From positions 1 to 42,723 of the forward strand of contig RBNJ01000085.1 in NCBI GenBank assembly GCA_003990765.1: a stretch of DNA of 42,723 bases, read 5' to 3'. The stretch comes from Jimgerdemannia flammicorona (taxonomy: Eukaryota). Shown piece after piece: positions 6,591 through 42,723 of this stretch. The notes under the pieces are model-generated. The model had not been told where the DNA came from. It made no database searches and saw only the letters and a program-made list of their open reading frames with translations. Within the stretch, counting starts at the first letter, position 1. Each line of letters begins with the position of its first letter. The position numbers and the translations under genes are program-made.

Positions 6591-6608
6591 AACACTACTA
6601 CTATCAAG
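6591..6608 (-). promoter_or_regulatory. Degenerate primer-binding site of A1, probably tRNA-iMet type (TGGTAGCAG-like)
   Basis: Minus strand reads cttgatagtagtagtg directly after the 5' LTR. D shows the same pattern (acttagtagtagtgg, 29206-29220). Differences from TGGTAGCAGCGG are transitions only. Confidence 0.45.
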
Positions 6609-7449: not shown

Positions 7450-7498
7450 ACTTCCTCCTGAATAGATGGTCTCATCTCTGAGGCATCTATTCAAACTC

Positions 7499-7948
7499 CT
7501 ATGCTTCAACCATCTGTATAGTCTTGTACTGCTCAATTTGCTGTATGACTGTTTCCCAATGATGTCTTCTTACTTTCTTGAAATCAGTGGGAGTTACTCC
7601 TCTCAGGTGGTCTATTGCTGGTTCATCTTCTTGGAATAACTTGTAGATCCTTTTGGTGATAGTGATCTGTGAGTAAGAGAGTTGGCACTCTGCGATCCAG
7701 TCTTCTTTGGTCTTTGCTGGATCCTGGTTGAGCACCTGTCCAAGCTTGAAGTACTCTTGGAACTCTGCCCAATGTTGGTAGGCACTAAAATGTGAGATCC
7801 GAGTGAGATGAGTCTGCACAATACTCTGAATACTATCATAACATTCCTCTATAGTCAGAGGTTTGGTGGTGCACTATTGTCTTTCAATAGCTCTTTGTGT
7901 AGTACTAGTGATCTTGAGTACCACTGCAGTACTCCGGTTATTGGCCAT
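7499..7948 (-). pseudogene. Accessory ORF of B, between integrase and PPT (about 150 codons, one internal TAG)
   Basis: ATG at 7948 overlaps the end of pol and is in frame with ORF 7499-7819 (QEYFKLGQVL...TKRIYKLFQEDEPAIDHLRGVT). Confidence 0.75.
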
Positions 7949-10900
7949 GGTACTTCTTGAGTCAGTTTTGGTGAATGGTGGTGGGGATTATTGTGTCTGA
8001 GGGCTTTTATAGTCAGAAAGTGGTCCCTTTTATATCTTGCACCAGGTAAGGTCCTTCCTATTTAGGCTCCAGTTTTTGTGACCAAGAAGCTTCTACCATA
8101 TTCTGATACACCAGGACTTCATCTCCTATCTTGATAATCTCCAGGGGCTTGTGGGTTTTTTCTGCATTGTTCTGTTGCAGTGCCTGTGCCTTGATTATGT
8201 AATCCTCTGCCTTTTTCCTGATCTGGTACAATCTCTGTATCTCTATGTCTACATGTTTCCAAATTGCATCATTACTTGCTGACAAACTTCCACCAGAACT
8301 TTCTTTGCTGAATAGCATTTCTCGTGGTGTAAAATGGGTGCTTTGTAATCATATGTCTCACAGAGTAGATAATGCTATTGGAAGATAGTGGTCCCAGTTT
8401 CCATATTCATCACAGATCTTGGCGATGATATTCTTGAGGGTCTTGTTGGTTCTCTCTGCTTGTCCATTTCCTTGTGGGTGATATGCAGTGGTCTTGATGT
8501 GTTGGATCTTGTACTTTTTGTAAAGAATCTCATGAAACTGGTTGACAAATTCTGTTCCTCTGTCTGTAGTAACTTGCTTCGGGGTTTTGAATTGGCAGAT
8601 GATTTCTCTGTATAAGAAATCGGCAATTGACTGTGCATTGACTTCCTTGAGTGGTCCAGCCTCTACCCATTTTGTAAACAGGTCTACTATTACAATGACA
8701 TATTGGTTGCCAGTCAATATCAGGGGTAGGGGGCCGATTACATCCATTGCAATGTGGGCAAATGGTATCAGTTTGATGTCTGCTGATCCAGGGGCTTGAT
8801 CTCATTGGTCTTGTTTCTGTTTCTGGCATTTGTCATAGGTCCTGACAAATTGTCTGATATCTTCCTCTATTCCAGGCCACCACAAGATTCTTCTCGCTTT
8901 GTTATAGGTGTTTGTTCCTCCTACATGACCTTGTTTATGTACCTCTTTCATCACTTGATTCTTCCAGTGCTTGGGGATGACTAATTGTTGTCCTTTCTTG
9001 AATATTTCTCCATCAGTTTCAAATTGTTTCCATGTCTAATTAATAATTGTTTTTGTCCATTCTTCCAGATGTGGGGGCATCTTTCGCTGCCCTAGGTAGC
9101 TGATGATTCCATAGTACAGCTCCTTATTCATGGTGATTTTGTGGGGGTGGGGTCCTTCGGGGTGTCCGTGAGAGGGCGTCAGCATTGGTATTGGTTCTTC
9201 CAGAGCGGTGGGTGATTGTAGCATCATATGCTTGCAGCTTTATGATCCATCAGGCATAGATTCCTTTGGGCTCACTTGTAGTGAGCAATCAGGTAAGTGC
9301 TGAGTAGTCTGTCTGGATGGTGAAGTGTCTTCCAGCCAGGTAGTAGTGGAACTTCTCTACAGCCCAGATGACAGCAAGGCATTCCAGCTTGTATGATTCA
9401 TAGGACTGCTCGGCTCCTCAAGTACCTCGGCTGAGATAAGCTACCATATATTCAGCACTATTCTTCTTTTGTGTAAGGACAGCTCCAAGTCCCATTGCAC
9501 TGGCATCTGTCTGCAGAATAAACTCTTGAGTCCAGTTGGGTCTTCTCAGTATTGGGGCCTGGGTCAATCTGGTCTTGAGCTCATCAAAGGCTAGTTGCTG
9601 CTGCTGAGTCCACTGGAACTTGACCTCTTTTCTGAACAGATCATAGATAGGACTGGCAATGTGGAAGAACCTTCTGATAAATCTTCTGTAGTAGGATACA
9701 AGTCCCATGAAGGCTCGGGCTTCAGTGATACTGATAGGTACTGGGTATGCTGCTACTGCTTTGATCTTTGTAGGATCTGTATGTGTTTCTTCACGGTTGA
9801 TAATGTGTCCAAGGTATGTGATTTCTTCTTCTCCAAACTTGCATTTCTTGGGCTTGATGTAGAGGCCATGTTTATAAAGCCTTCTGAGAATTTCCTCAAT
9901 GTGTTCCAAGTGCTCCTTGGCAGTTTGGCTGAAGATGATCACATTATCTACATATACCATCATCTATTTTTCTATAACATCCCTGAAGATACTGTTCATC
10001 ATTCGCTGGAAGCTTGCTGGTGCATTGCACATTCCAAAGGGCATGCGAAGATAGACATAGGTTCCATCAGGAGTAATGAAGGCTGATCTTTTGCTGGCTT
10101 CAGGTGTAAGGCCAATTTGGTAGAATCCTGAGAACAGATCCAGGGTAGTGTAGAATCATGATTCATTCCCCAGCATGATAAGAATATCACCAATATTGGG
10201 CAATAGTTGTCTGTCCTTCTCTGTGACCTCGTTGAGTCTTCTATAATCTGTGCAGAGTCTTGGTACAAACTCTCCTGGTCGGCTTCCTTTCTTTGGTACA
10301 AGGATGATAGAGAAGGACTAAGGGCTGCTAGCTTCTTCAATGATACCAGATTCCTCCATTTCCTTGATCTCTGTCTTGAGCCATTCTCTGTATGCTGGTG
10401 GAATGGAGCAGACCTTCTGATAGATTGGCTTTGCATCTCCAGTATTGACATCATGATAATACAAGGGTTTCTTAGTCTTGATATTCTTGAAATCTGTGAC
10501 CAGTACATCCTCCGATATATGCAAGAGGCTCTGCAATTCTTTCCTGAGGGGGAAGTTTCTTCTGATTGTGTAGGTGTGTTTGTCTTGGCTTTCCTCCTTC
10601 TTGTGCTCCAATTCGGTGATCTTAGTTGCTGTGAGGACTCCTCTTCCTGTAGAGCTGAATCCAGCTCTCCCTCACTGAGTTTGTCTGATGTTTGCAACCT
10701 CCTTGATTCTTGGATTAAGGACAGGTAGGATGAGCATTTGTGCCAGCTGATCTTTCTTTCTTACTTCAAATGAGATTGTTGGGTTGTGGTTCCTGGCAAG
10801 GAGAAGAATTTCTCCAGTATAATCCGAATCGATGACTCCTCCTTCTATAGATATTTCACTTTTCGCCAGGCTACTCCTTGTCTTAAGAATTCTGATATGG

Positions 10901-13110
10901 TTTGGTGGGATGGTTACTTCAATTCCTGTTCCTAGAATGGTAGTGGTCTGTGGTTCGAGTATTGTGTGTGTAGTAGTAGATAGGTCCATTTCAGTTGCAT
11001 TTTCCAACTTGTACTGTGGTATGACTGCATCAGGGCAAATCCTTCGTATCTTGACTATAATATCTTCATCCTCATCATTGCTGTCATCCAATAACTCTGA
11101 TGGTCCATCTTCTAGTTCCTCCTGGTTCTTCTTTGGCTTGTTGGTGATCTTCTTCACCTCAATGATACAAGAGTAGCAGTGATCCAAATGCTGAGCACAG
11201 TACATTCTTTCACCATAGGGACACCTTCCTAGTGGGGTATATCCATCTGTGATTCTTGTATACCATTCTTCCTCAGTCAATTGCTTGCCTTTTCCTTTCT
11301 TTGTAGTAACCATATAGGCTTCTTCTTCTTGGTCTTCCTCCATCTTGGGGCAGACTCCTTTGTGGACATTGATGGGAATTCTGATCTTCTTTCCCCGGTA
11401 GACAATCTACATCTTCTGTGCACTGAGGTCAATCATTGCCTTGGCTTTATGAAGCCATTAATTGCCAATGAGAATATCATAGTTGGTTGCATTGGTGACG
11501 ATGACATCCATAGGGATAGTGGCTTCGCCAAACTTGATTGGTACATCCCAAATTTTTCTCAAGGGTGTTGCTCATGTCCCATCAGCTGTGACAAACACCA
11601 ATTTGGTGGCTTCTTCTATCTCCCAACCTAGGCAGTCTACTGCTTTCTTGGTGATGAGACATCCTCCTACTCCTGTATCAATGATGGCTTCAAAGATCTG
11701 GTCCTCGATCTGGCAGGTAGCATAGGCTGATGTTTTCCAGTTATCTTCACTCTCTTCATCTGAATCTTCTTGTGCATTGTTGGCTTTAATTATTCTGTAA
11801 CCTTGGTCTTTGCCGATATCTGAGATTCCTGTCCTCATTTGTTGTCTGAAGGTTGGGATTTCTGCTAGTTGGCTGAAGGTTGCATTGACCTTTTGGTCCT
11901 TGAGGTCCTTGAAGATATCATACTTGAAGGTCTTGCTCTTGTGCAATTTCTGCTCCTTCTTCTCTTCACTTGATGGGGTGGTGTTTCTGATGATATCTTC
12001 TACTACTTGTTCAAGTTCAGCATCTTGTTCTAGCTCTATATCTTGATCAGCTTCGCTCTGCTGGTTCTCTTTTTCGATGACTGTTTCTGGTTGTCTTGTT
12101 TGTGTCTGGGCTTTCTTAGGAGGTCTGCCTGGAGGTCTTTTATAAGAACTGGATTGGACATCCTTCTTGCTTGAGGTGGCAGGGTAAGCTTCCCATTCCT
12201 CCCTCTCTTCCTCAGATTCTCCAATCTCCTCGAAGGTGATAGTGTTTGCTTGTTCGCAGTTCCTAGTTGTATTGCTTGGATTGGCCTTTCACTTGGTTTC
12301 TATCATACATTCAGAGGCATAATGGCCTTCTTCTCCACACCTGTAGCATGTTACTGATTGCCTGTCATTTGTGGCCACAAACTTTTGTACTGGCTTCTTC
12401 TTGAATTCTTTGACTATATCACTGAGGTGCACTGTCATTTCCACAAACTGCTTGGCCAGTTCCTCCATTGGGTCAACCCTTCTCTGGTCTTGTGATTGTA
12501 GTTGTTGTTGTGTATTCTAATTAACTATGGCAGCTGGGACTGTATTGATAATTCTTGATGCTTGTTCCATTTTTACTCCAGTTATCCTTTCCATTGTATG
12601 GCCTTGAGGGTGTCTGGCAGTCCAGTATCTTTGGGTGTAGGTAACCTTCTGTCCCAGGTCCAGTGATGTTGGGGTAGATTGAATGGCTAAAGCAATTTCT
12701 TGGTGAATGCCTTTCATGAAGGTATTCTTGGCCACTTGGTCTTGAACTGCATTGGGGTAGTCAGTAAGGACTATTTGATGTCAGATTCTTGTGTAGAATG
12801 TGTTTGGGTCTTCGGACATTCTTTGGCAGATAGTATTCAGTTGATCTTTGAGTACTTGTTTGATTTCATCTATATAGTAGATTACCCAGAGCCAGGCCTT
12901 GAAGGCCAGGATTCTTGCTGGATCATCAGCTCCTTGTACATTAGCTGTGGTAAATGCAGTTCTTGCTGGGCCTTGGAGGCTCACAGGGAGTAGGGCTACT
13001 TGTTATGCTGCCGATAAGGTTCTTATAGCAGCATACTGCTCGAAATCATCAATGAAGGTGATGATTGATTCATCAGAGGTATATCTATGGAATATGGGTG
13101 GTCTCATATC
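7938..13110 (-). pseudogene. pol: B gag-pol remnant
   Basis: CYRCGEEGHYASEC knuckle (~12310-12350); IIDTGVGGC protease; YVDNVIIF RT; LQTDASAMGLGAVL RNase H; DVIGP/TDRG/ERTN integrase DDE; GPY motif near 8050. Confidence 0.95.
10640..11060 (-). pseudogene. dut: dUTPase domain of B, between protease and RT
   Basis: MDLS...LGTGIEV...TRSSLA...GGVIDSDYTGEI...LAQMLI in ORF 10672-11343. Confidence 0.9.
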
Positions 13111-13212
13111 CATTCTGTCTGATTGTGTTGTGTGGGTTCTGGTTGTAGTTATTCGTTATTCAGCTTGAAAGTGAGGGATTCGTCTTGAATCATCAGCCAA
13201 TGGGCACTAAGT

Positions 13213-13678
13213 TGTAATATAGTGGATACTAAGATAGGCAAGTACATCAGATTTCTTTATCTTAAATTCTTGTCTTCTTGACTCCCAGAGTCAGTAGTTC
13301 CTTGAGGCCAAATGTGTTTAAAGAGGTAATCCCGAAGGTCCTTTTATTGGTATACTTGTTCTTTTTCTAACACTTTCAATCTGAGGTTTATTCACTCCAA
13401 GATACTGGGTTATTTATACAAGTTTGCTAGCTATGAGAGGGTGGCTAAGTAATAAATGAGTTATTTGGACTTTGTCGAAATATTTGGACAATGTCTAAAT
13501 GCTTTACTAAATTGTGACATTCAATTTGGATAATGTCTAAAAATTTAGACAATGTCTAAGAATTTAGATAATGTCGAAATCAAGGACTGCTAACTATAAG
13601 ACTATACTACTTTGGGAATGGGTGCAATCAAGTGTCTATTCCCTATTTCCTTCTTCCTAATTCAGCTATACTGTTACA
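13213..13678 (-). repeat. 5' LTR of B
   Basis: tgtaatatag...ctgttaca. Adjacent PBS-like tagtgcccat on the minus strand may be a decayed TGGCGCCCA (tRNA-Lys-like; uncertain). Confidence 0.95.
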
Positions 13679-14599
13679 CTATGAAATTGTTATAGTGTTA
13701 AAGGAATTATTATCTTCTGCTTTATTATTATTAAACTAGATTATATTGTAGATATCCTTCATAGTATATCTAACCTGGGGTATTTGCAAGATATAGTTGT
13801 TAGGGTATAGAAAGATTCTGTCTATAGTTTGAATATACTTGATATACTTGTGATTGAGTTCTTATATTATATTATCAATTTGACTATAGAATAGGGTGGT
13901 AATAATTTCAGCAGTAGTAACTTAGAGGTGAGAAATAAAGATACTGTACTTATAAAAGAGTTCTCAGTATTTATAAGCAATAAGTTTCTAGTATTGAGAC
14001 ATCTGAGTAATATCTGTATTATAGTAGTGTTTAACTATATCTTCTAGGAGATAGTTGATCTAGTAGTAGCTTGAGATTTGTCTGATTTAGTGAGCTTTAC
14101 TGAGTATATTCAGGTCATTTCATTGTGCTTCTATAAAGTAGAGAGGTACCAAACTATGGATATTCATAAAAGATAGGAGAGGTATAGCTTGATTGACAAT
14201 AACATTCTAAATATTAATATGAATGCAGTTGTAGATCTAAGTAATTATGGTTGAATATATATTTAAGAGTTGTAGTTATTTATTTAGTTTATTGTAGTTC
14301 TCTATTTTGATGTATCTGAGTACTTAGTATATATGCATTTAGTCTTAATTGTTAAGATTCTATTTATATAAATCTTGTATTCTATGACTTTGATTTGACT
14401 CAGTTTTGTACTTTGTAACTTCAGTTTGACTTAACTTTATGATCTTATATGTAATTTCTGAATTTATTTAGAGGGTGATGTGCAATTTTAGTAACTTGGA
14501 GGTTATATATTTATGTATAATTTAATTTAATTCAAATTAATTTGATTTATTTGGAAGTACTAGATAATATAAATAATTTTATTTATTGAGAATATAGAT

Positions 14600-15410
14600 T
14601 ATATTAGTTTTAAAAAAGTAATATCTTTGAATTCATTCTAGATAAATGGACAAATATTATAATAAAGTATTCTTGGTATTTCAATTTTATAGAAAAAAGT
14701 ACTAGTACTGAAAATAACAAAATTTTGATTTTTTTTTTATAATTTTTGAAGTTTTGTATTTACTACTTTTTAATAATTTAAATTCTTATAATAGACTATT
14801 TACAACTTCTCAAGTTTTGATCACACTATAATTAGAACTAATAAAAAGAAAATATTGAAACTTTTATAATATCTGTAAATATAAAACCAAAGAGTGGTAT
14901 TATTTTTGTTTTATTCATTTATATTATTATAAGTAATTTTTAAGTATCTTTTATCTTAGTTCAATTACTTAATTCTATTAAAGATCAGAATAAGTATACT
15001 ATTCAGATCTTTCTCAAGAAGTTTATTCTCATTTAGTATATAGTTAATTTACTCACATAATACTTTATCCTAGATATTAAATAAATGTACTTTGTAAGTA
15101 CTAAGATAATATACTTTACTGATCTGTTAATCTGAATAAGATATATAGCTATTTTGAGCTCAGTTATAACTATAATGAGTGGTAGCATCAATGCTATAAT
15201 ATTGAATCATAGTATTTATTAGTAATGAGTTTTTATTATTCTTCTACCAATTTGATATTTTTATTATAATAGTTTCTCTCTAGCTTAGCTTTGATAAGAT
15301 ATTCTTTATATCTCTTTAATAAATCTTAAATATAATAAAATTATATTCCAATATTATAAATAATAATATTATCAAGCTGATATTATTAGATTCATATCAC
15401 TAGTAAGGTT
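14600..15410 (-). pseudogene. Highly decayed DNA transposase relic, Sola-like / DUF7869-like
   Basis: Manual translation gives AKLERNYYN...THYSYN*AQN...KVHLFNI...INYILNE...KITYNN..*NKNNTTLWFY (a decayed DNxxGQNKN motif) and C-terminal ICPFI*NEFKDIT. Confidence 0.6.
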
Positions 15411-15413
15411 ATA

Positions 15414-16358
15414 TGTTAGAAAAATCAAGAATATTAGTGAGATCATAATGATTTTGCACTAATTTTGGTCCTCTTCAGCTGATTATATCATAGTAATCAT
15501 ACTAGTCTCTGTACTAGTTTAGTATATACTTATACTGATATTACTATAAAATATATCTCAAAAATAGACTAAGGATGCTAAAAATAGTACAAGACTAAAT
15601 TATATTATAGAATACTTAGAGAAAGAGTAAAGAGAAGAAGTAGTAATTATTTATTAATAGCTTATATACTTTTATATATATTGATGATATTTATAGGATG
15701 ATATAGTCAGACTATATCACTATATATTAAGTTGCTATAATTAAGATATTTCAACACTCCTACTCAATGAGATATATTTCAGAATATATAAATAGAAGAA
15801 CTAACTAATAATAACTAACTAAATACTATCTAGATAATTAAAAAAGATCAAAATTTCCTACTTATAAGTATAAAAATAGATTAAAAATATAGTAAAAAAC
15901 TAATAATATAGATTCAGATCTATTTACAAATAAAGAGATATAAGTAATGTTAGAAATATATATATATACTATATAAGATATAGTGAGAGACTTTTTAGTA
16001 CTTTGAAAAAACTTTCTATTATTACTTATATTATTATTATTATTTACTGCTTACTGATATATAGTTGATAAGTTTTATTTCTAGTATATATGTATAAGTC
16101 AAACTTTACTTTTAGAAGAGTTTTAGTTAATTAATCTGCTATTATACATATATATACTCTCTTAGAGTATATTTGAGATATATAGTACTATTTTTCATAC
16201 ATTCTTATATGAAATAATAGTATATATTAATATGTTTAATCTTTGCATAATATATATAATTCTTTACTATAGCAATCATATATTGATTATCTTATTGGAG
16301 TAGTATAGAGTACTCTTTCTGAAAAAATCTCAATTCTTTTAATAGTTTCTAAAGCTAT
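15414..16358 (-). mobile_element. Ty1/Copia relic: RNase H end, 3' UTR, PPT and probable 3' LTR (about 15414-15756)
   Basis: 16075-16355 translates to LLKEL...DNQYMIAIVKN...AKIKHINIYYYFI*EC...IIAD*LTKTL, a Copia RNase H. Minus strand gagtaggag-TGTTGAA at about 15750-15765 is a typical Copia PPT/LTR junction. Left LTR edge is tentative. Confidence 0.7.
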
Positions 16359-17924
16359 TATTATATAGTGGTCACTGAGTTTTTCAAATATATCAGATTC
16401 TCTTCAAGGTATATCTCTTAGACTAATTATAAGTTTTTTATAAGCAAGTTCTTATTGGAGTATCTTCCTAAGGTCTTATATTTCTCAAACTTCTTATCTT
16501 TAAACTATCTTATTATCTCTTAGATTGCTTATATATAATTGAGTGTAAGTGAACTGGAACTGACTTTATTTCAAAGAAAATAAGAGGAATATTTATATAA
16601 AATATAATTCAATAGTTACTAAGTTATAAAGCTAAATATAAATTCCAATAACTAAATAAAATACTGGAATACAGAAAACTATAGTTGTAAGTACAAATTC
16701 AAATATCTGTACAAATGGTTGCATAAGTTCAGGATGCTAGTAGATTTTGATAGTATAGAAAAAGGGTGCTTAAAGATTTAGGTGTTATAGAAAAAGAATA
16801 TTAGTAGAATTTAGTTACATAGAAAAAGGATGTCAGAAGATTTCAGTATTACCAAGAACTTAGAGCAGAATGTTCAGGACTATGGGGGCTTCATCTTCAT
16901 CACTGCTAGAGGTCAGAATGTTCTTGAATGAAATGAGGTCTACAAATGTTTTATCTATTTCATATATTTCATATATTATATAAGATGACATCATTTCATT
17001 TGGTGACAGAGAAAGCAAGAAGATCCAGGGCTCTCCAATCTATGACATTCTCTTCTACAAAATAAGAAACAAATGTGGAGTCTTGGAGAGGTCTAACCTG
17101 GATACTGGGGCCTTAGAATACTGAGATCAATTCTTATAGAAATTGATCAGAATTGTCCTTGAGAATGGGATTCCAGAACTCTCCTACCTCATCACCATTG
17201 AGAGTGATAGTGGACTGGGCTTCTGTGACCACTATGGCCTCTAGTGTATTAGTACAGCAGGCTGATAGTTTCTTAAAATCTGAGACTCTAGTATATGTAC
17301 TCTAAGTTGGGAATCAACCATAGTATATACCTAAAGACCTGATGAATCTTCTTAGCTGTCCTTATTTCATACATATCTATAGAAGTGACATCTTGAATCT
17401 CTTGGAGACTGGCCTGAGAGAATTTCCAGTAGAGGAGGTTTCCTATTTCATATTTATGCCATATCTAGAGACATTCAGTAGCAATGATAATTCTTGTTCC
17501 CATTTCATGGCAGTAGAGGATATAATGATAAGGGTCACCAGTACTTAGATTGAGGCTAGAAGTCCTTCTTGTATGGGTCCTCATGACTCTTCTGATGTCT
17601 TGGAATATTCTTTTCTGGACTGAGAGGTCTTAGTGGTTCCTGGACCTTGAGGTTTGGTGAGTAGTAGATATTTTATTTATAGTAAGTCTTTTGAACTATT
17701 TCTGTAAGCCTTGTTTGAGTTGCTGCTACTGCAGTTTCTTGATTCTTCTTTTATATTTCTCAAGATGTCAGTCTTATAGTCATAATAACTCATAGTTAGT
17801 TATTATTGCTCATCTTGTAGTCTGAGTGAGTCATATCATATGATCTTCTTATACTCTGATCTGGTGGCTTATAAGGAAAGGCTATCTCCTGTACTAATAT
17901 TATCATTCTGAGGTCACCATTATA
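16359..17924 (-). repeat. 3' LTR of C (about 1.57 kb) containing a decayed accessory ORF (about 16860-17670)
   Basis: Homologous to 36279-37838 and, inverted, to 18708-20260. Confidence 0.85.
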
Positions 17925-18707
17925 TCTTCCTCCTAAATAAGAATCTTCTCTTAAATATTCTTATTCATTGGTCCAGTCTGAAAAATTTGCTGATCCCATA
18001 ATCTCTGGCAGGGAGTTAAAAAGTGGTATTTATGGGCTGATATCTTCTTTATATATTTTGGTATGATGGTGAAGGGTCACTCCCTTCATATAGAGTAAGA
18101 GTCTGATTCTGATATTGATCAATTAGTTGATGGTTTGAACTCCTCTGGCTTTGAAAGTCTCATAGATAAGTAGTTACTGGTACTGTATCTCTTAGAGAAT
18201 GGTCCAGATAGATTATCTGCTAGTCATAAGATATACTGTTACAATTCATGGACTAGAACCTCATGGGTGATCATCACATTTTACTTCTCTTATATAGGTT
18301 CATAGTACTTCTTGAGTCTGTTCTTATATATTGTGGTAGGCAGTATGATCTCTGAAAGTTTTCTAAGCCAGAAGGTAGTTTTCTTGATATCTTATATGTA
18401 GAAGAGTTCTTCCTATTTGGGCTTCAGTTTTCATGACCATGAGACTTCTACTATATTTCAATACAGTAGAACCTTTTCTTCAATTTAGATAGGTTTTAGG
18501 GTCTTGTAATTCTTTTCTGTATTCTTTCTCATCAGTGCTTATGACTTGATGATATAATCTTCAGCCTTCTTTCTGATTTGGTATAGTCTCCAGATTTCTG
18601 AGTCAATCTATCTCTAAGTTAGATCTAGATTTATAGCTAAGATTCCATTAGAATCATCTTCTCCAAAGAGTAGTTCTCTTGGGGTAAAGTGTATACTCTG
18701 TGACTAT

Positions 18708-20260
18708 TGTAACAGTGACTTCAGAATGATGACATCAGCACAGGAGACAGTCTTTCCTTGCAAGCCACCAGATTGGAGTATAAGAAGATTATATGGCATA
18801 TGAGATGAGTAATGATGACCAACTGTGAATCATTGTGACCACAGTATAGTACCTCAAGGAATATAAAAGAAGGATCAAGGAACTGCAGTAGCAGCAACCA
18901 ACAAGACCCACCAATCTCAAAATAGCTTAAAGACTTACTACAAATGAAATGCCTGCCACTTGCCAAACCTCAAGGTCAAGGAACTATCAAGGTACCTTGG
19001 TCAAAGAAAGGATATTTCAAGACATCAGAAGAGCTATGAGGACCTGCTCAAGAAGGACTCCTAGTGTTGACCTAGGTACTGCAGATCCCTATCATTATAT
19101 CCTCTACTGCCATGAAATGGAAACAAGGATCACCATTGCTACTAAATGCCTCCAAATATGGCAGGAGTATGAAATAGGAAACCTCCTCTACCAGGAGTTC
19201 CCACAGGCCAACACTCAAGAGCTACAAGATGCCACTTCTATGGATATACACAAAATGAGGACAGCTAAGAAGATCCATCAGATCTTCAGGCATGTACTAT
19301 GATTGATCCCCAACTTAGAGTATGTTAGAGTCTCAGATTTCAGAGACCTGTCATCTCACTATATCAATGTACTAGAAGCCAGAGTGGCTACAGAAGCCCA
19401 GTCCACTATCACCCTCAATAGTGATGAAGTAGAAGACTTCTGGCATCCTATCTTCCAGAACAACCCAGACCAATTTCTGCAAGGATTGATCTCAGTATTC
19501 TAAGGCCCAAGCATCCAGGTCAGACCTCCCCAAGACCCCACATTTGTCCCTTATTTTGTAGAAGAGAACCTCATAGATTAGAGAGCCCCCAATTTCCCTG
19601 CTGCCAAATGTGATGACGTCATCAGTGATGATGTCATCTCACACAACTTCGACATATGCGAAACACATAATGAAGTACACAAAGTATGTGAAACGTATGA
19701 CCTACATGACGAATTCATGGACCTCATCTCCTTCAAAGATATCCTGACCTCTGATGATAAGGATGAAGTCTCCATGGTCCTGAACTTTCTGCTCTAAGTT
19801 CTTTGTTATACTGAATAATGCTAGTACCAGTATTTTGATATAATACTAAATAATGCTAGCACTGGTATTTTGATGTAACATCAAATTATATCAGTATCCT
19901 GAACCTGTATAACCATCAGTATCAACCCTGGAACTTAGCAGTTTTCCTATCCTGGTATATTATTTTAGTTATTGGAATTTATATTTAGCTTTATATCTTA
20001 GCAACCATTAAATTATATTTTGTATAAGTACCCCTCTTATTTCCTCTGAAATAAAGTCAGTTCTAGTTTCACTTACACACACTTCCTTATAAGCAATCTA
20101 AGAGATAACAAGACAGTTAAAGATAAGAAGTTTGAGGACTATAAGATCTTGGGAAGACACTCTAATAAGAACTTGCTTATAACAAACTTGAGTTAGTCTA
20201 AGAGATATACCTTGAAGAGAATCTGGTATATTTGAAGGACTCAGTGACCACTATATGATA
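18708..20260 (+). mobile_element. Solo LTR of the E family, inverted, inserted in the integrase of C
   Basis: tgtaacag...tgata; reverse complement of 36279-37838. TSD CTAT at 18704-18707 and 20261-20264. Flanks rejoin as in 38601-38620. Confidence 0.92.
18949..19797 (+). pseudogene. LTR-encoded accessory ORF (about 283 codons, three internal stops)
   Basis: ORFs 18949-19302 and 19303-19503 and their continuation are one frame. The TAA and TAG are CAA and TGG in the E copy (36760-37230). Confidence 0.8.
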
Positions 20261-20635
20261 CTATAGATCTCATAAGACAGAGAGGGCAGTTAGGAGGTAG
20301 TTATCCCAATTGTCATATATGTCTGAGATCTTCACCAGGATGTTTTTGAGGGTCTTATTGATTCTTTCTATCTGTCTATTTCCTTGAGGGTAGTATATAG
20401 TGGTCTTGATATACTGAATCTTGTATTTCTGATATATTATCTCATGGAATCCATTGACAAATTCTGTACTACAGTCTGTAGTGATTTGTCTTAATGTCTT
20501 GTAGCAGTAGATGATTTCTCAGTATAAGAATTTGACTATAAAGAGAGTATTGGTATCTTGTAATACTCTTGCTTCTATCTATTTAGTAAAGAGGTTTATA
20601 ATAACTATAATATAGTAGTTTCCTGATAGTATTAC

Positions 20636-22702
20636 TGTAAGAGGGTTACTTTTTAGGGTAACTGTTACATAGTTCTGGAAGGGTTTTCTGGAAGTTCTGG
20701 ATATTCTGGAAGACTGTTTTCTTATGGTCAAGATCAATTTCATATGGAGTATATCCTCTACACTTATTGATTTCAAGATCGGGTTGACATCTCAACCAAA
20801 GTCCTTTTTCAGACTAGTTCTGGATATTCAGGATTTTCTGTATTTCAGAAAGTTCAAGAAACTAAGACCAGCTTAGTTGAATTGGCATATCGCTACAGAC
20901 AATATCCAATTAGGAAATTTCGTGATGGGGTTAGGAGTGGGATCTAATGGGGAGCGGATTTACTTAAGAGTGGTTTGTGGGTTATTAAATAGGTTTATTC
21001 GCTATTCATAATATTGCTATACTAGGAGTAGTTGTGTGAAGGAATATTGTAGAGAAGTGCTCAGGAGTTATGTTTGGATTGTTCAAGTCTGAGATTCTGA
21101 GGTCTAGGAGAGGGGGTATTTATACTAGTGGGGGGCTATCTGGACTATACTAGATATGGGTGTAGCACTAAGTATCTTGCTGAGTCAGAATGCAGTCACA
21201 TAGTACAAGAGTGATCTGACATATCAAGAGATCATCTGACTGCTGAGTCAGTTTACAGTTACATCGTATAGGGCTAATCTAACTATATTATAACTGCTAG
21301 ACTATTTATAAATTTGGACACTATCTGGGTAGTCTTCGATGATATTACTATCGATTGCATCATCTCTGATGAAGTAGTCATCTAGGAAGAGTGATTCACA
21401 GATTACTTCTCCTTGTTTGCTGAGGTAATAATATATTGGAACTTTGTCACTATCCCATAGGATAGCATCATCTGTCTCATATACTAGATAAGGTGTTGGG
21501 GGGTAAAGGAGTGGTATATCATCTTTGCTTTCATTGGTTTCACTATCTGTATACCTTCTATAGGTTACAGTACTGTGAGTCATGGGGTTGTAGTAAGCTG
21601 GCGACTGTGGTTTATGTTGCTTATACTCAGGTAGTAGAGTGGTTAGTTTGATCTCAAGGGTTGTCTGAAGGTATAGGTTGTGTTCTCCAGTCTCTTCATT
21701 GTAGTTGAAGTAATCGGGGTGAACATGGGTTGGTATTCGTGCCAGTGGTCATTGTCCCAATAAGTCTTGTATGTAGTTATAAACTATTGTAAGTTCATCA
21801 GCAAGGTTGGCAGTATGATCAGGGTTGGCAGAGATCCTTGGCTTGAGGTCATGTCAGTATTAGAGAGATTATTGTCTTCTGCTTTGTCTTCATCAAATCA
21901 GATTATATGTATCATACACATCCTTCATAGTATATCTGACTTGAGGTATTTGCAGGATATGGTCATCAGGGTGTGGAAAGGTTCTGTCTGTGGTCTGGAC
22001 ATATTCTAGGTACTTGTGGTTGAGTTCTTGGATCATGTTGTCAATTTGGCCATAGAACAGGGTAGCCACTATTTCGCTGGTAGTAACTTGGAGGCAGGAA
22101 ATAAAGGTGCTGTACTCATAAAAGAGTTCTCTGTGTTTGTGGGCAATGAGCTTCTAGTGTTGAGACATCTGGATAATGTCTGTATCATAGTGGTATTTGA
22201 CCATGTCTTTCAGGAGGTGACCAATTTGGTAGTAGCTTGAGATTTGTCTGATCTGGTGGGCCTTATTAAGCATATTCAGGGCATTCCATCAGGCTTCCAC
22301 GAAGTAGAGGAGTGCTAGACTATGGATATTCATGAGGGGTAGAGGGGGTGTGGCTTGGTTGACAATGGCATTCTAAATGTTAGCATAGATGTGGTTGTAG
22401 ATCTTGGTGGTCATATTTGTATATTTGGAAGTTATAGTTATTGTTTGTTTTAGTTCTTTGTTTTGACACATCTCAGTGCTTGGTATATATACATTTGGTC
22501 CTGATTGGTAAGATTCTGTTTATGTGAATCTTGTGTTCCATGACTTCATGTTGACTCAGCTTTGTATGCTGTGACTTCGGTTTGACTTAGCTTCATGATC
22601 ATGCAGATAATTTCCAGATTTGTTCAGAGGTCACATGTGATTTTAGTAGCTTATTCAGAGGGTAATGTGTGATTTCTGTGGCTTGGAGGTTGTGTACTTA
22701 CA
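20636..22702 (-). repeat. 3' LTR of D
   Basis: Direct repeat of 29221-31283. TATAAATA on the minus strand near 21117-21124. Confidence 0.95.
21302..22414 (-). pseudogene. Accessory ORF in the 3' LTR of D (about 371 codons, internal stops)
   Basis: ATG at 22414 is in frame with ORF 21302-21583; homologous to the 5' LTR copy. Confidence 0.72.
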
Positions 22703-23129
22703 ACTCTCTCCTTCTTAACTTTCGACATCCTCGTCAGAGCCTTCTAATTTTGTTCTAGTATTGTTACACCATTTGAGAGGTCAAAAGTCTAGTAAAGTCC
22801 ATTTTTTCAGAAAGTGGTATGCTCATAGTACAGTTGTCTAATATATTGGATTCACATGTTAAAGGGTCATGTGTTTGATACTGTATACCAGAAGTGATTC
22901 TGATATCATTTACTGCTGGAGAATTTCCTCTAAGGAATCTTCTTAAATATCTATGTCTCATTTCCCACCAGTGGTATGGGGAGAATAGGCTGGCTTTCAG
23001 TTTTGCTATTTTTCTAGAGGATTGGTGTTCTTTTCTCTTGACTTGATGAGTTCTTGATTGTGATAATTATAGTGTTTAGGTAATATATAGTATGTACTGA
23101 TAGGTGCAGGAGTATTAGGGTTTCAGTTG

Positions 23130-26100
23130 TTCAAGGAATTATATTCCTGAGCTAAGTCTGTGGTATTCTGGAGATTGGTCTTGGGTTTCCATATTGCATC
23201 ATGGATCGGGTAACCTTTTCATTTGACAAGGTACTCAGGATAGTTCTTGTTGCCATGTTTGTTGAGGATTTGTTCAACTTTGTATTCTTCTTGGTCATTA
23301 ATTATGACAGGTGCAGATGGTTCAGTAGTTTGGTTTGGGAATAGCTTATCATTATTTTCATTGTATTGCTTGAGACGTTGGATATTGAAGACTGGGTGAA
23401 TCTTAATAGTGTCTGGTAGTGCCAATTTGTAGGAGGTTGGAGAGACTTGTGCAATGACTTCAAATAGTCCAATGAACTTGCTGTTCAGCTTTGTAGATAG
23501 TCTATGCTTGAGGTTGTCAACTCAGTATCCTTGGATGTCTAGTAGAACTTTTTTGCCAATATCAAAGGTTTCTTCATAGTGGTGTTGGTTAACATACTGT
23601 GACTATTGTTCTTGAGCTCATGATAAATTCTCAATTGTGATCTGGCTTAGATTGCGCATTCAGAGCAGGAATTCTTCAACAGCTTCAACTGTAGAGGGTT
23701 CTTCAGTAGTTCAGATGAGTGTCAAAGGGGTGTTTGGGTTTTGTCCTGTATTAGCAAAGAATAGAGTCATTCCAAGAGAGGCTTGTTTGCTGTTGTTATA
23801 AGCAAACTCGACTGCAGTGAGGTGTTTATGCCAATCATCTTATCTGTAGGAGACATAGTTCCTTAGCATTTATTCCAGAGTTTAGTTCATTCTTCTATTT
23901 GGCTATCAGTTTTAGGGTAAAAGGCTGTGGATAGTACAAGTTTTGTTCCAAGGTGTGCATGGAGGGCTTTCCAAAAATGGCTGGTGAATTTTGGATCTCA
24001 GTCACTAACAATAATCTTAGGAAGACCATGATAGTGGAAGATGTTGTCAAACAAGAGTGTGGCTATGTCTGGTGCTGTTGCAGTAGTAGTAGTTGGCATG
24101 AAGTAGGCTTGTTTGCTGAGATAGTCCACAAAGACAATAATTGCATCTTTTCCATTCTTGGTTCAGAGTAGTTGTACAATAAAGTCCATAGAGATTTGTT
24201 CCCAATTCGCAGATGGTACTGGGATAGGGTGGAGTAGGCCAGGTTTTGCTAGTGTTGAGGTCTTGTTCCATTGGCAGGCATCACAGAAAGTGATGTAGGT
24301 CTTAAGCTGATCTGCCATATGGGGCCAATAGAAGTTTCAGGAGATGACTTCATAACATTTGTCAAATCCTAAATGTCCAGCTGTAGGTATATCATAACAT
24401 TCAAATAGGATAGTCCTTCGGAGGTCTTGGTTGTTTGGAACATATAGTCTGTCCTTGTAGTAGATACATAGCATTGTCCTTGAGTTGGTATTGATGGTAC
24501 CAGGTATACTTGTCAGCATCATCACTATTCAGAATTTCTTGGAGTGCTTGAGCTTCTTTATCATCAGCATATACTGTGATAATTTGTTCCATGATAGTGT
24601 TGGTAACCAAGGTGAGAGTTTGGATAACTTCTTCAATGAGTGGTCTGGAGATTACATCAGTAACAATGTTTTCCTTGTTAGGGTGATACTGGATTTTATA
24701 GTTAAAGTTGGTGAGGACTTTCATCCATCTGGCTTACTTTCGAGAAAGGGTAGCCTGTGTCTTGATGTTGACTAATGACTTATGGTCAGTCAATATAGTA
24801 AAGTGTGCTCTTTCTAGGTATGGTCACTATTTAATCAGAGTATCTATGATGGCTAGCATTTCCTTCTCATGAGTTATATAGTTGATTTCAGCATCATTGA
24901 ACTTACGGGAATGATAGGCCACAGGATGTCCTTCTTACATGAGTACAGCCCCAAGGGCTAGGTCAGAGGCATTGGTAGTAACTTCATATAGTAGTACAGG
25001 GTTTGCTGCTTGAAGTACTGGAGTGGTTATCAGGGTATTCTTTAGTGCTTGAAAGGTGATATCTTGCTTGGGTCCCCAATTTACAAGATTATTGAAGTCT
25101 TTCTCTTGTTTTGTAGTCCAGAACTGTTCTCCTTTCTTATTATGCTTGGTCATTTGGGTGAGGGCAGTAGTGATTTTGGCAAAGTTGGCAACAAATCATC
25201 TGTAATAGTTTGCTAATCCCAGGAATGACTGGAGGTCTTTCAGCTTCTTGGGTCTGGGCTAATCTTTGATTACAGAGATTTTGCTGGAGTCCACTTTGAT
25301 TCCATTTGGTGTGATGATGTGTCCAAGAAATTGAATTTTCTTCAGGAGAAATTCGTACTTACTGAGTTTTGCAAAGAGTCAGTTTTCTCGAAGTTTCAAT
25401 AGTACTAGTTTGAGGTGTTCAAGATATTCCTCCAGGGTTCTGCTGAAGACTAGGATGTTGTCAATGTAGACAACAATGAATTTGTCCAGATATGAGTGCA
25501 GGATGGTGTTCATCAGTGTCTGGAATGTTGCAGGAGCATTAGTTAGGCCAAAAGACATAACCAGAAACTCGAAGTGTCCATAATAGGTTTGGAAGGCTGT
25601 CTTGTAGATGTCTTCTTCTTTCATAGCAATTTGCCAGTAACCATTTCGCAGATCAAAAGAGCTTATGAATTGTGGATTGATAAGTCTATCGAATATTTCA
25701 TCGATCCTGGGTAGTGGGCAATAGTTCTTGATTGTCTGTTCATTGAGGTCACAGTAATTAATGCATATTTACAGATCTCCTCCTTTCTTGACAATAAAGA
25801 GGACTGGTGCACCATAAAGTGATACACTAGATCTGATGAATTCTTGTTCTAGGAGTTTGTCAATTTCTTTCTTGAGTACATCAATTTCTCTCAGAGACAT
25901 GTGGTAGATTGACTTGAAGGCTGGTTTGGCATCTGGAATAGTCTTGATGATATGGTCCACTGCTTGTTTAGGAGGTAAGCCTTTCAGGAGCTTCTTTGGG
26001 AATATGTCTTGGAATTTCTGGAGTAGTGGTCTGACATGGCTGTTGACTTTAGAAAAGTCTTCTTCAGAGTTCTTGGATTCTCCTTTGGATGGACAAATGG

Positions 26101-28900
26101 AGATAGCAAAGAGAGGGCATTTCTTGGCTAATTTCTTGAGTTGTAGCTTATTGATATGGGTGATCTTTGGTCCAGAGTCACTGGAGTTGAGTGGGTCCTT
26201 TTTATCTTACAGTTTGAAGTTATAGCATCCTTTCTTAAGGGTTAGAGAATGGTTTACCCAATTGATCATGGGGTTCTCTAGTTTCAACCATGAGGTTTCA
26301 AGAATGATCTTGTTGTCAGAAAGTGGTACAATTTGGAGGGTAACATGTACTCAATAGTCACCAATTCAAAAGGGCAGATTGTGGACTTCCTTACTAATGA
26401 CATATGAGGTTCCATCAGCTGTGGCAACTGCTTGAGTTTGTTGTACCAGAGAGGTGAAGACCTTGAGTCTGTTGGCTGTTTCTTTATTAATGAAGTTGCC
26501 TGAGGCACCACTGTCTATCATAATCTTGACAGATACTCGGTTGACAAAAGCTTTAAGTGTAAGCAATTTATCTGATCCAATAGTGGTGATTTCAGTTGTA
26601 GGAGCTTTCCTTCTGTTGGTTCTTCTTTAAGTCAGTTCATTGATACAAGAGAAGCAATCATCGATCATTCGGGAAGAGTACATTCTAATGCCATGGGGGC
26701 ATCAGCAACTTGGTACATATCTATCTTTGATTTTCTTATAGAATTGTTCTTCTTTATTCATGGTAGATTGGGCTGGGGCCTTGTTTGATGAACCAAATCC
26801 TTTGGATCCTCAGATGGTAGGCAGTAGTTCAGGGACTTCCTTGACTGTCAGGTTTGACTCAATTTTTTCAAATAGGATCTGGGCAATACAGAAACCAATA
26901 GGAATCTTGAAGGGTGTCCAACTGTGATTTCAGATGAGAACAATAATTTCGCCTGTATAATCTTTGTCAATGACTCTTCCTTCTACTGAGAGTCCTTTCA
27001 ATGCTAGGCTGCTGTGACAGCATATTCTTCCAATATGTCCTTCAGGAATTTGGATACTGATTCCTATATAGACTTGCTTGACTTCTCAGTTGGAAACTGT
27101 AGCTTCTTCGGCTGCATACAGGTCATATCCAGCTGCTTTTTGACTTCCTTTGGTTGGGGCCTTAGCAGTTTGTCTTAACTTGACAAAGTCCAGTGTTCTG
27201 GTGGTCGGATTATTGAGATTGTGCAGAGTGGTAACAGTTGCTCATATTGCTGTTTAGGGTTTTTAGTTAGGGCAGACACTGGCCATGTGTCTTGTCTTTT
27301 GGCAATAGAAGCATACTCCACTTCTTCAAAGTTCATTTCTTTCACCTTTGGTGAGTTTTTTGAAGGTACTTGGCTGTGTGGGTTCATGATTTCTGAGTGT
27401 CCAAGAGGTGGATGTAGAGAGAGCTCGGGATGCTTCATGCTTAGGTTCTTCTTTCTTGGTCCAAGTCTTTTCCTTGTTATTGAATTGTCTTCAAGGCAGA
27501 ATTGGTCCAGCTATTAAGATTCACTTAACCATAGTCTTGATTCTTGCTAGGCACCATTGTTGGTGATCGCAACCAACTGGGCAGCCTTGTTCTCAGATTT
27601 TTCTAGTAAGCTATTCAGGCAGGGCATTGAATAGATGGTCTGCTCTTGTACCATTTCGTGCTTCATCATTGGTGATATATCTTAGGCCAACAGTGTTCAG
27701 GAGTGACTTGAGTTTTGTACAGAAGGTTTCGAATTCTTCTTTGCCATATATATCAAATTTGAGGTTGCAGAGTTTTACTCAAGATTCAGCAATTATGGTT
27801 TCACTGTAGTATTGAGCAATCATGAGTTGTTTCAGTCCAGGGGCTGCAGGATGGGCTCCATATCCTGGGACATTATTTGCTGTATTCTGAGCAACTACTG
27901 TAGATCAGGTGTCCCATGTGAGGGGTTTTTCAGGAAGGGTTCACCACCATTCTTTGGCAGGTCCTTGGAAGAATATAACAACTCGGCAGATGTAGGCTGT
28001 GGTGGTAGCAAAGAGTTGTTCTAGAGTGTGGTCTTGATTGTTTGTCAGAACACAGTCAGCAACTTACTCATTGGTCCATTGATTGGCTTCAAAGTTAGTG
28101 TCAACTACACTAATAAAGCTTTGGACTTCTTGTGTAGTACCATTGAAGGTAGGTAGGCTCAGATTTTTGGTAGGTCAGGTCTGTTCCACCAAGGCAGTAA
28201 TGGTTGCTGCCATTATTGCTACCTGGGCTATAAGGTCTAGAATCTGTTGGTTCACTATGTTGTTTACTAAAGGTGGTTGGACTGCTGGTAGTGGTGTTAC
28301 TGGTACTACTTGAGGTACTGGTGCAGAGTGTGAGGGTATTCTTTGGGTCTGTGTAAGTTGTTGGAGTAATAGTTATAGGTCTGGAGTAAGGCCTTGATAG
28401 ATAGCTGTCTGTTGCTGTATAGGTGTATTCTGTCCTAATGGAGGTACGTCTCCTTCGGTGGTGTATCCGGGATTGAATTCACTGAGATACTCCTCCTCCT
28501 CTTTGGTTTGGTCCTCATATAGTTGGATTTGCTCAGCATCGAAGTAGAAAGAGTCAGTTGTATATCTGATTTCAGAAGGACTTAATTCAAAGTCAAGTTC
28601 TGGTTTGGTATTGGTTTCAGATTCCAGTAGAGCAGTAGCAGGACCTACTTCTGATTCAGGGTTAGGTAGTTGATGAAGAGTTTCTCTTGCTTCTTCCTTA
28701 AGGATATACCAGGCCTTGCTGTTCTGGAATTGATAGTATAATGCGGTCTTGGTCCTGGTATGGTAAAAGTCAGTAGAGTTGAGCCACTTGGCTACAGAGG
28801 CTTGAGCTTCATGAGGAACTAAGGTTAGAAAGACTGCTGCTGGTTGTCCTAGGTCACTCAGATTTGTAGAGCTGACAAAACTCTTGTTGAGAAGAGTAAA
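23130..28900 (-). pseudogene. pol: D gag-pol remnant
   Basis: CFYCQKTRHMASVC knuckle; IDSGASGNFI protease; FGLTNAPATFQ and YIDNILVF RT; TNASDLALGAVL RNase H; IHPVFNIQRLK integrase end; EEYKVEQILNK...YLVK chromodomain. The gag start is approximate. Confidence 0.93.
26790..27185 (-). pseudogene. dut: dUTPase domain of D, between Zn knuckle and protease
   Basis: Manual translation gives AAGYDLYA...IGISIQIP...HSSLA...VIDKDYTGEI...IAQILF...*GSKGFGSS, covering motifs 1-5. Confidence 0.92.
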
Positions 28901-29220
28901 GAAGGCTGCTATAAGACCTTCTTCATCTTGACTTGCTGGGTATAGAGCAAGGAGTTCAGTGAATAGGGTTTCACCTATTTGCTTATTTAACTGGAGTATT
29001 TCTTTTTTTGAATGAAGTTTGTCCCACTTGTTGCAGGTGTAGAGATCAAATTGTCCTTGTACATCAGGTTCAATTCTCTCCAGATTGTCAGATGATTCAG
29101 GATAAATTCCAGTTCAGAGGTTGGGCTTTATACCAACTTGTAGGAATTTGCAAAAGGGTTTGTAGTGGGGTGAGGAAGCATCTTGAAGTGAAATTGGATT
29201 GTAAACCACTACTACTAAGT

Positions 29221-31283: not shown

Positions 31284-31644
31284 ATTACTGGTAGTGATCT
31301 AATGATATCTATTGTAATGTAGTGGAAGGAGATAGGCTCAATTCTTGATGACCTAGGTATCTGGTCTTGCTGATCTTGTTTCTGTTTTTGATACTTATCA
31401 CACCCTTTGACAAATTGGTACAGGTCTTCTTCCATCTTAGGCTACTACATGATTCTTCTTACTTTGTCATATATATTGATTTCTCCTAGATATTCTTGTT
31501 CATATACTTTCTTCATTACTTGATACTTCTTATATTCAGGTATTATGAGCTTTTCTCCTTTTCTGAGTGTGATATTATCTAGTTTAAATTGTTTCCAAGT
31601 CCAGTTGATAATAGTGATAGTTCAGGGTTTGAGATAGTTGAGCA

Positions 31645-36755: not shown

Positions 36756-36759
36756 GAAC

Positions 36760-42693: not shown

Positions 42694-42723
<30 letters not shown>
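42694..42723. repeat. Poly(T) run of 30 nt at the window end
   Basis: Seen directly. Confidence 0.95.

Follow-up and report, generated by a model that had tools for sequence, protein, structure and literature searches.

A decayed accessory gene inside the long terminal repeat of a dUTPase-bearing Ty3/gypsy retrotransposon family in Jimgerdemannia flammicorona

The solo LTR at 18708-20260 and its identification

The window analysed here is the whole 42,723-nucleotide contig RBNJ01000085.1 of Jimgerdemannia flammicorona (GenBank assembly GCA_003990765.1; forward strand), and self-comparison shows it to be a nest of Ty3/gypsy retrotransposons, the sense strand of all of which lies on the minus strand. 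Our subject is the stretch 18708-20260 on the plus strand, which is a solo long terminal repeat (LTR), i.e., the remnant of LTR-LTR recombination, of the Ty3/gypsy family formed by two of these elements, E and C, together with the accessory open reading frame (ORF) that this LTR contains. E and its relative B encode on the minus strand, in this order, the Pfam domains Asp_protease_2, dUTPase, RVT_1, RT_RNaseH_2, rve and Integrase_H2C2, and their pol genes are sisters, with 70% nucleotide identity across 4 kb. The E/C family and B are Ty3/gypsy (Metaviridae) elements with a dUTPase domain; the E/C family has no chromodomain, and none was found in B or E. The dUTPase lies between the protease and the reverse transcriptase, at 10672-11406 in B and 40633-41181 in E (both minus strand; Pfam E values of 9e-18 and 1e-16), a position that is reported from basidiomycete and bdelloid elements. 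The features that bear on the identification of the LTR, including the polypurine tracts (PPTs), are as follows.

18708-20260, plus strand: solo LTR of the E/C family, 1553 bp, beginning TGTAAC and ending TGATA (E ends TGACA)
18704-18707: left copy of the target-site duplication CTAT; E has a single copy of the site (38576-38645 compared)
20261-20264: right copy of the target-site duplication CTAT
36279 to past the window end, minus strand: element E, with only its 3' LTR inside the window
36279-37838, minus strand: 3' LTR of E, 1560 bp, ending ...TGACA
37839-37851, minus strand: PPT of E, adjoining the LTR start, with the sense-strand sequence TTCAGGAGAAAGA
16359-17924, minus strand: 3' LTR of element C; C is sister to E and fragmented, with internal pieces at 17925-18707, 20261-20637 and 31285-31640 (self-comparison)
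6984-13678, minus strand: element B, with 466-bp LTRs at 6984-7449 and 13213-13678 that are 93% alike, the order protease (PR)-dUTPase-reverse transcriptase (RT)-RNaseH-integrase (INT), and the 4-bp duplication ATAG
7450-7462, minus strand: PPT of B (TTCAGGAGGAAGT), directly before the LTR

The 1553-bp unit is repeated at 37838-36281 (82.6% identity) and at 17917-16359 (74%), both on the minus strand, and the three copies share their ends. The solo copy sits within the integrase region of the older copy C, and its two flanks adjoin each other in E, where 18500-18707 corresponds to 38403-38610 and 20260-20559 to 38606-38905. The CTAT duplication that encloses it is 4 bp long, and 5 bp only by counting the last A of the LTR as flank. 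The termini are TG...CA in E (TG...TGACA) and TG...TGATA in the solo copy; the full 3' ends read ...CCACTATGTGACA in E and ...CCACTATATGATA in the solo copy, to which the LTR end of B, ...CCACTATATTACA, is related. The purine tract of E, and likewise that of C, runs straight into the first base of the unit, which in turn closes the element. On the sense strand, the tract TTCAGGAGAAAGA is followed by the LTR start TGTAAT in E, and the tract TTCAGGAGGAAGT by TGTGAC in B; the two elements resemble each other in the PPT and over the first ~9 bases of the LTR. The E/C LTR is about three times as long as the LTR of the sister family B.

Logan contigs of four runs, X1, X2, X3 and X8 (three soil metagenomes and one 'organism A'), at a likeness of at least 80%, were compared with the window. 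One contig each in X2, X3 and X8, i.e., in three of the four runs, bridges 18703/18704 to 20263/20268 and thus represents the empty site, and in the same three runs purine-rich loose contig ends stop before 18708, as expected of the PPTs of other copies. One short contig of X2 passes from the LTR end (loose end behind 20253) into a sequence like a primer-binding site (PBS), ACTTGGTGCCCATTGG..., which matches ACTTAGTGCCCATTGG... after the 5' LTR of B and looks like a tRNA primer-binding site. The sequence after the 5' LTRs of B and of a third element, D, described below (13190-13212 and 29198-29220, minus strand), begins ACTTAGT...; its counterpart in a metagenome relative is ACTTGGTGCCCATTGGCTGG, seemingly a tRNA primer-binding site that starts 3 nt past the LTR. 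Contig depth is several-fold higher over the LTR than over its flanks; contig depth is not copy number, so it was not used.

The shared ends, the PPT junctions, the duplication, the empty-site contigs and the PBS-like junction together show that the unit is an LTR and that 18708-20260 is a solo LTR. One could instead regard the 1.55-kb unit as a separate non-autonomous element which lies by chance beside E and C and once alone, and the window does show only 3' copies and one solo copy, with no complete E/C 5' LTR. However, the first base of the unit in both E and C directly follows a PPT homologous to that of B, the unit has the terminus CCACTAT..(A/G)(C/T)A in common with the B LTR, it has TG...CA ends and a 4-bp duplication as the LTRs of B and D do, it carries the TATA motif common to the family, and one contig runs from its 3' end into a B-like PBS; we consider a separate element highly improbable. 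The initial annotation had likewise described a solo LTR flanked by a target-site duplication, and it is borne out by CTAT on both sides, the intact site in E and the empty-site contigs. Its placing of the E/C PPT upstream of the ORF, which an LTR of about 1.56 kb would then contain, agrees with a unit that starts directly after the PPT and measures 1560 bp in E; the two near-identical PPT strings that it gave for B and E are TTCAGGAGGAAGT and TTCAGGAGAAAGA read on the other strand.

The accessory reading frame and its counterpart in element B

The frame carried by the LTR, its copy in E and the corresponding frame of B are located as follows.

18949-19797, plus strand: accessory ORF of 282 codons plus stop, at LTR positions 242-1090, pseudogenised by in-frame stops
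36760-37596, minus strand: ORF in the 3' LTR of E, with stops at codons 24, 69 and 118
7487-7948, minus strand: ORF3 of B, located between pol and the PPT and ending ~40 nt short of the latter; intact in its relative P0013, with 153 codons

In E/C, the ORF begins 241 nt past the PPT, and thus inside the LTR rather than between the pol stop and the PPT in the internal part of the element, and the distance from pol to the ORF is ~0.6 kb. Three in-frame stops interrupt the solo copy, at codon 118 (TGA, 19300-19302), codon 185 (TAA, 19501-19503) and codon 211 (TAG, 19579-19581), with zero frameshifts. The initial annotation stated that this LTR keeps the whole ORF and inferred that the gene can survive LTR-LTR recombination. 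Both hold in part: the full 282-codon frame is present at full length in a solo LTR and keeps its register between the solo and E copies, but the 117 codons that remain open (18949-19302) are only the first 42% of it, the ORF in the solo LTR is therefore not intact, and the copy in the 3' LTR of C is disrupted by numerous stops and by a frameshift. The ORF ATG is preceded at 5 nt by a second, out-of-frame ATG (18944-18949), which opens an overlapping frame of 31 codons and is conserved in E; it may affect translation of the ORF.

At the positions of the stops in the window copy, the relatives have W or Q. The change T>C at 19501 occurs in 33, 13, 4 and 8 contigs of X1, X2, X3 and X8, respectively, at nearly full depth, and the stops at 19300-19302 and 19579-19581 are absent among the variants listed (40 of 261) from the contig comparison. 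The differences from window to contigs are mainly A>G and T>C, an excess which indicates that the window copy decayed via C-to-T and G-to-A changes. Over the whole window, the observed/expected ratio of CpG is 0.11, TpG/CpA is in excess and the differences between copies are mostly transitions; CpG depletion together with transition-dominated differences fits deamination of methylated CpG in silenced repeats.

The accessory gene of the LTR is real, and intact copies of it exist elsewhere. A word-indexed search of 5.8 billion proteins gave 281 candidates, five of which are related at E<=0.01, and the relatives include P0004 (271 aa, full length, 68% identity) and P0003 (247 aa, 82%). When 1.84 billion cluster representatives were searched exhaustively with a HMMER profile, five clusters emerged, three of which are distant (P0010, P0011 of 342 aa, and P0012; 28-47% identity). 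A pattern search of metagenome contigs returned 282 matches, none of them related, and it missed P0003 although both search motifs are present there.

Across the family copies, the E/C ORF is conserved on the sense strand with signs of coding constraint, subject to a control from element D that is weighed below. The differences between the solo and E copies number 34, 22 and 64 at codon positions 1, 2 and 3, respectively, and the ratio of nonsynonymous to synonymous substitution rates (dN/dS) by the Nei-Gojobori method (NG86) is 0.22, against 0.66-0.75 in the other two frames. In a permutation test whose null preserves the substitution type and the dinucleotide context, 56 codons change the amino acid where 79-81 are expected, and 0 of 5000 shuffles were as low; the two off-frames gave P values of 0.25 and 0.03.

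The protein encoded by the E/C ORF has a basic N-terminus, a core predicted to be helical, an extra C-terminal domain of high conservation (FWNPILQDNPDQFLQGLISVFQGP...QDPTFVPYF), an acidic stretch that varies, and ...LNFLL as its conserved end. The searches for a function speak against naming one. No Pfam family was found for the window ORF, nor at E<=1 for P0004, P0008 or P0010-P0013, and a sequence-profile search of the PDB was without match. AlphaFold2 models reach a mean confidence (predicted local distance difference test, pLDDT) of 46 for P0004 and 59.5 for P0013, Foldseek gave zero matches to the PDB at E<=0.001, and the VIA wide comparison had a best Z of 5.2, none of these lying above noise. 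The ESM Atlas gave nothing convincing, with a best score of 0.83 and an own model of pLDDT 0.35. In the AlphaFold2 model of P0013, core residues 60-140 are all helical (pLDDT 62-84), and the helical core recurrently matches ParB-type DNA-binding domains, namely SopB (3mkw_B and 3mky_P), VirB (3vwb_A), P1 ParB (1zx4_A) and KorB (8qa8_A), at Z 4.0-4.6, with Noc as a further ParB-type match at a Foldseek probability of 0.10-0.11. These model-based matches are a lead only, since they lie below the noise level for helical models. By analogy with proteins of the ORF3 type, the product might be a trans-acting regulator or an RNA/DNA-binding helper, an assignment that we offer tentatively. An origin from gag was considered and rejected, as hhalign of the ORF alignment against the gag-PR frame of B gave E 0.54.

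In B, an accessory ORF lies on the other side of the PPT. As the initial annotation had it, this ORF is found just before the PPT of an element with 466-bp LTRs. It starts MANNRST (7948), and the window copy has two premature stops, the intact relatives being P0013 (153 aa) and P0014-P0016. Its ATG (7948-7946) precedes the pol stop codon (7940-7938) by 6 nt, and the two frames have ATGGCCAATAA in common, an overlap that suggests termination-reinitiation, frameshift coupling or a fusion.

The E/C LTR ORF is very probably homologous to this ORF3. Compared as single sequences, the two frames resemble each other weakly (21-26% identity; BLASTP E 0.001; 36% probability in hhalign of the E/C profile against the single B sequence), and the C-terminal half of the E/C protein, ~130 aa, is missing in B. 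In addition, neither tblastn nor three-frame reading revealed an ORF remnant between pol and the PPT in E or C. These observations are what one would expect if the two ORFs were independent acquisitions or resembled each other by chance, in which case nothing would have moved relative to the PPT. However, profile-profile comparison by hhalign gives a probability of 88.5% and E 2.7e-6, colinear across 114 columns; when the B ORF is compared with the window in six frames, its best non-self matches fall on the LTR ORFs of E, C and D, in the correct orientation; the distant P0012 bridges the motifs (AIAHLQGVT vs ALAHLRGVT); and B and E are sisters in pol over the 4 kb mentioned above. Separate origins are thus improbable in our judgement. 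In agreement with homology, tblastn of P0013 against the window matched the solo and E LTR ORFs (E 0.004-0.006), and the joint alignment shows the motifs (W/F)QEY.(I/L)G..L, AK(K/R)IH(Q/K)(I/L)F and (I/L)(P/A)(N/H)L.(Y/G)V..DF.

If B ORF3 and the E/C ORF are homologous, two sister families carry the same accessory gene, B before and E/C after the PPT. This could have come about in that a new PPT arose upstream of the ORF, in that the ORF moved into the LTR, specifically its unique 3' region (U3), or in that B lost an ancestral LTR location. Inspection by eye of the E/C LTR downstream of the ORF revealed nothing convincing as a relic PPT or LTR start, and the scoring of a global alignment of the B and E/C LTRs was too harsh to be informative.

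Placement in U3, expression and the neighbouring elements

Whether the ORF belongs to U3 depends on where the repeat region (R) of the genomic RNA begins, and the following features bear on this.

20022-20034, plus strand: putative genomic-RNA core promoter, GTATAAGTACCCC, the TATA motif common with the B and D LTRs
20050-20062, plus strand: putative poly(A) signal and R start, AATAAA (20050-20055) then TCAGTT, from sequence reading
18860-18899, plus strand: conserved block that includes a TATA box (AATATAAAAG...) and lies ~85 nt before the ORF ATG, a candidate ORF promoter
29698-29710 and 21113-21125, minus strand: TATA motifs of D, one per LTR

The LTRs of B, E/C and D have a TATA motif, GTATAAATA(A/C)CCC, in common. 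The window contains six matches to it (0.13 expected), a count reached in 0 of 100 shuffles, and all six lie inside LTRs on the sense strand. Its LTR positions are 260-272 of 466 in B, 1323-1335 of 1560 in E and 1575-1587 of 2064 in D; in E/C, it lies 225 nt downstream of the ORF stop. In both B and E, AATAAA follows ~22 nt past the motif, and TCAG stands 36 nt after the first T of TATA. Conservation within the E/C LTR is highest over its last ~290 nt (84-88% three-way identity). We infer from these motifs that the shared TATA motif is the genomic-RNA core promoter, with a poly(A) signal and a short R just after it, and that U3 would then measure ~285 nt in B, ~1350 nt in E/C and ~1600 nt in D. 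Since the shared TATA motif is downstream of the ORF, the ORFs of E/C (LTR positions 242-1090) and D (290-916) would lie in U3. Just past the ORF, in this putative U3, there is a 35-bp tandem repeat, at 19808-19878 on the plus strand in the solo copy (2.0 copies) and at 36592-36753 in E (4.6 copies); with its variable copy number, it resembles the enhancer repeats of retroviral U3.

A different placement would follow if the block at 18860-18899 were the genomic-RNA promoter. The ORF would then lie in a very long R region/5' leader, as the first cistron, and would recur at the 3' end of the RNA. In favour of this, the block, ~85 nt before the ATG, ranks with the most strongly conserved parts of the LTR's first 240 nt. 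On the other hand, R would need to be ~1.15 kb long, gag translation would have to follow an 849-nt upstream ORF, and the TATA motif that E/C shares with D and with the ORF-less 466-bp LTR of B is downstream of the ORF, at similar distances from the LTR 3' end (194 nt in B, 223 nt in E). We regard a long R as unlikely and think that the ORF probably lies in U3.

Element D offers a second ORF-bearing LTR, and its features are listed here together with fragments of the same type.

20636-31284, minus strand: element D, a chromovirus inserted in C, with LTRs at 20636-22703 and 29221-31284 and the duplication GTAA(T)
30369-30995 and 21787-22414, minus strand (sense of D): ORF in both LTRs of D, at LTR positions 290-916, upstream of the shared TATA motif
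268-962 and 13694-14497: a single D-type LTR in two pieces, held apart by a short-LTR element (1164-6981) and B, which are nested in it
13658-14248: third, heavily decayed copy of the D ORF, in the split D-type LTR fragment

The LTRs of D are 2064 and 2068 bp long and 90% alike, and each carries the ORF in sense, in agreement with the initial annotation, which had assigned D the same arrangement in an LTR of 2.06 kb. After the integrase, the pol of D has a chromodomain-like end (EEYKVEQILNKHG...YLVKWKGYP; 22704-23300, minus strand; translation read by eye), which identifies D as a chromovirus, so that the ORF-in-LTR arrangement occurs in two distinct gypsy lineages of one genome. The D ORF has one database relative, P0008. 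It resembles the E/C and B ORFs weakly, in the same motif region (E 0.0015-0.065 and probability 1-17% over all comparisons; E 0.0015-0.0036 and probability 9-17% in the better hhalign comparisons), and homology to them is only suggestive; D may be a second, possibly independent, case of an ORF across the PPT in the LTR.

Overall, we think it likely that 18708-20260 is a solo LTR of a dUTPase Ty3/gypsy family which carries, in U3, an accessory gene of ~280 codons homologous to ORF3 of B. Several observations weigh against this reading. The window is without a full-length E/C element bearing both LTRs, and the presence of the ORF in a 5' LTR is deduced from the solo LTR and one short LTR-PBS contig that spans only the LTR end. 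All three E/C ORF copies in the window are pseudogenes, with stops that arose from C-to-T and G-to-A changes. The borders of U3, R and the unique 5' region (U5) are drawn from motifs only, each single TATA match is weak (blastn E ~0.1), and beyond short motifs the B, E/C and D LTRs are otherwise unalignable. Lastly, the two LTR copies of the D ORF, which are expected to diverge neutrally because D is a single element whose target duplication matches, show a frame-specific deficit too (22 amino-acid-changing codons vs 31 expected, P 0.0006; dN/dS 0.24). Part of the constraint signal may thus come from gene conversion by other or active copies, or from unmodelled mutation bias, and because of this deficit the argument for selection leans more on the intact distant relatives than on the copies in the window.

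With the gene past the PPT and before the core TATA motif, i.e., in U3, genomic RNA would carry it as a single copy near the 3' end, like an ordinary ORF3 such as that of B. Reverse transcription would copy U3 into both LTRs, giving two DNA copies per integrated element and one per solo LTR, and the protein would act in trans for the element. The means of expression would nevertheless have to differ between the families, as the ATG of B overlaps the pol stop, whereas the E/C ORF is ~0.6 kb from pol and has a TATA block of its own. That this block, in which the C and E copies differ by transitions only in the three-copy alignment, is the ORF's own promoter is a guess from its conservation.

The TATA block, the ORF and the LTR AATAAA could form a self-contained transcription unit. 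The LTR would then be a gene cassette, with its own promoter (18860-18899), the 282-codon ORF and the poly(A) signal (20050-20055), and each 5' or solo LTR would be an expression unit for a trans-acting protein, which we hold to be rather doubtful. Because genomic RNA has a single U3, the ORF copy of a 5' or solo LTR would be of no consequence unless the ORF has a promoter of its own. The initial annotation had proposed that a change in the position of the ORF relative to the PPT doubled the gene dosage. The homologous gene is indeed found on either side of the PPT in B and E/C, but the doubling holds for DNA only; as the RNA carries U3 once, a doubled dosage would be true only if the LTR worked as a cassette. 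In that case, LTR-LTR recombination, which is normally the death of an element, would leave working copies that serve the family or are open to host domestication. If the ORF did move across the PPT, such a move would be a general route for LTR growth from 0.5 to 1.5-2 kb.

A gene borne by an LTR has two DNA copies per element, survives in solo LTRs and stands beside the element's enhancers. B and E/C, with the same gene on either side of the PPT in sister families, amount to a natural experiment that allows tests of LTR expansion and of ORF3 expression. It also follows that annotation pipelines which mask LTRs will hide genes of this kind.

The remainder of the window holds the following.

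1164-6981 and 31645-36278, minus strand: unrelated family with short LTRs (self-comparison)
14500-16355: stretch of 19.5% G+C with zero CpG between the D-type LTR fragment and the C LTR, probably an extremely decayed repeat
42694-42723: run of 30 T that closes the window

Comparison with known systems

The domain order of B and E has counterparts among fungal Ty3/gypsy elements with a dUTPase between PR and RT, e.g., PosPlaTy3-5 of Postia placenta, and an 'add. ORF' whose function is unknown is marked in some of the fungal elements shown by Novikova et al. (2010, PMC2864245). B and E share with these elements the order PR-dUTPase-RT-RNaseH-INT and the extra ORF, a likeness drawn from a figure legend in PMC2864245 and not from sequence. 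The dUTPase arrangement and the contigs from soil would make a fungal host plausible.

Accessory ORFs (aORFs) and ORF3s of retrotransposons, in the portions of PMC7264820, PMC5408684 and PMC10309623 drawn on here, are like the E/C ORF in being lineage-restricted sense ORFs downstream of pol, without outside homology or known function. In the relevant portion of their review of accessory ORFs, Vicient and Casacuberta (2020, PMC7264820) place aORFs in the internal region, and the phrases 'in the LTR' and 'within the' were not found in its text. The position between pol and the PPT, as given in these sources, is exactly that of ORF3 of B, whereas the ORFs of E/C and D lie beyond the PPT, wholly inside the LTR. 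Two examples from the same portions of these papers are the ORF 'brtn' of Botrytis Boty, an antisense internal aORF according to the review (PMC7264820), and CERV of Cer1, an ORF needed for genomic-RNA export (PMC10309623), an example of how an ORF of this kind can regulate the element's RNA in trans.

A full-text literature search, with most subscription journals outside its coverage, returned no report of a conserved gene wholly inside a retrotransposon LTR; PMC10787394, PMC6875170 and PMC4031123 proved to have no bearing on ORFs in LTRs. Among retroviruses, nef of human and simian immunodeficiency viruses (HIV/SIV) and bel/bet of foamy viruses are 3' accessory genes whose coding sequence extends past the PPT into U3. 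These genes start upstream of the PPT and only overlap U3, whereas the E/C ORF and the ~240 nt before it are wholly inside the LTR. Pfam includes Sag and Nef models, and no similarity to them was seen, there being no Pfam family at E<=1 for P0004, P0008 or P0010-P0013.

The sag gene of mouse mammary tumour virus (MMTV) differs from the E/C ORF in that MMTV is a retrovirus with env and E/C is a retrotransposon, and nothing suggests a superantigen function in E/C. The likeness lies in the layout: sag, the superantigen gene in the U3 of the MMTV LTR (PMC12548423), is a complete accessory ORF. It sits inside a long U3, in both proviral LTRs and once in genomic RNA. A gene within an LTR, as found in the E/C family, is an arrangement otherwise known mainly from a few retroviruses.

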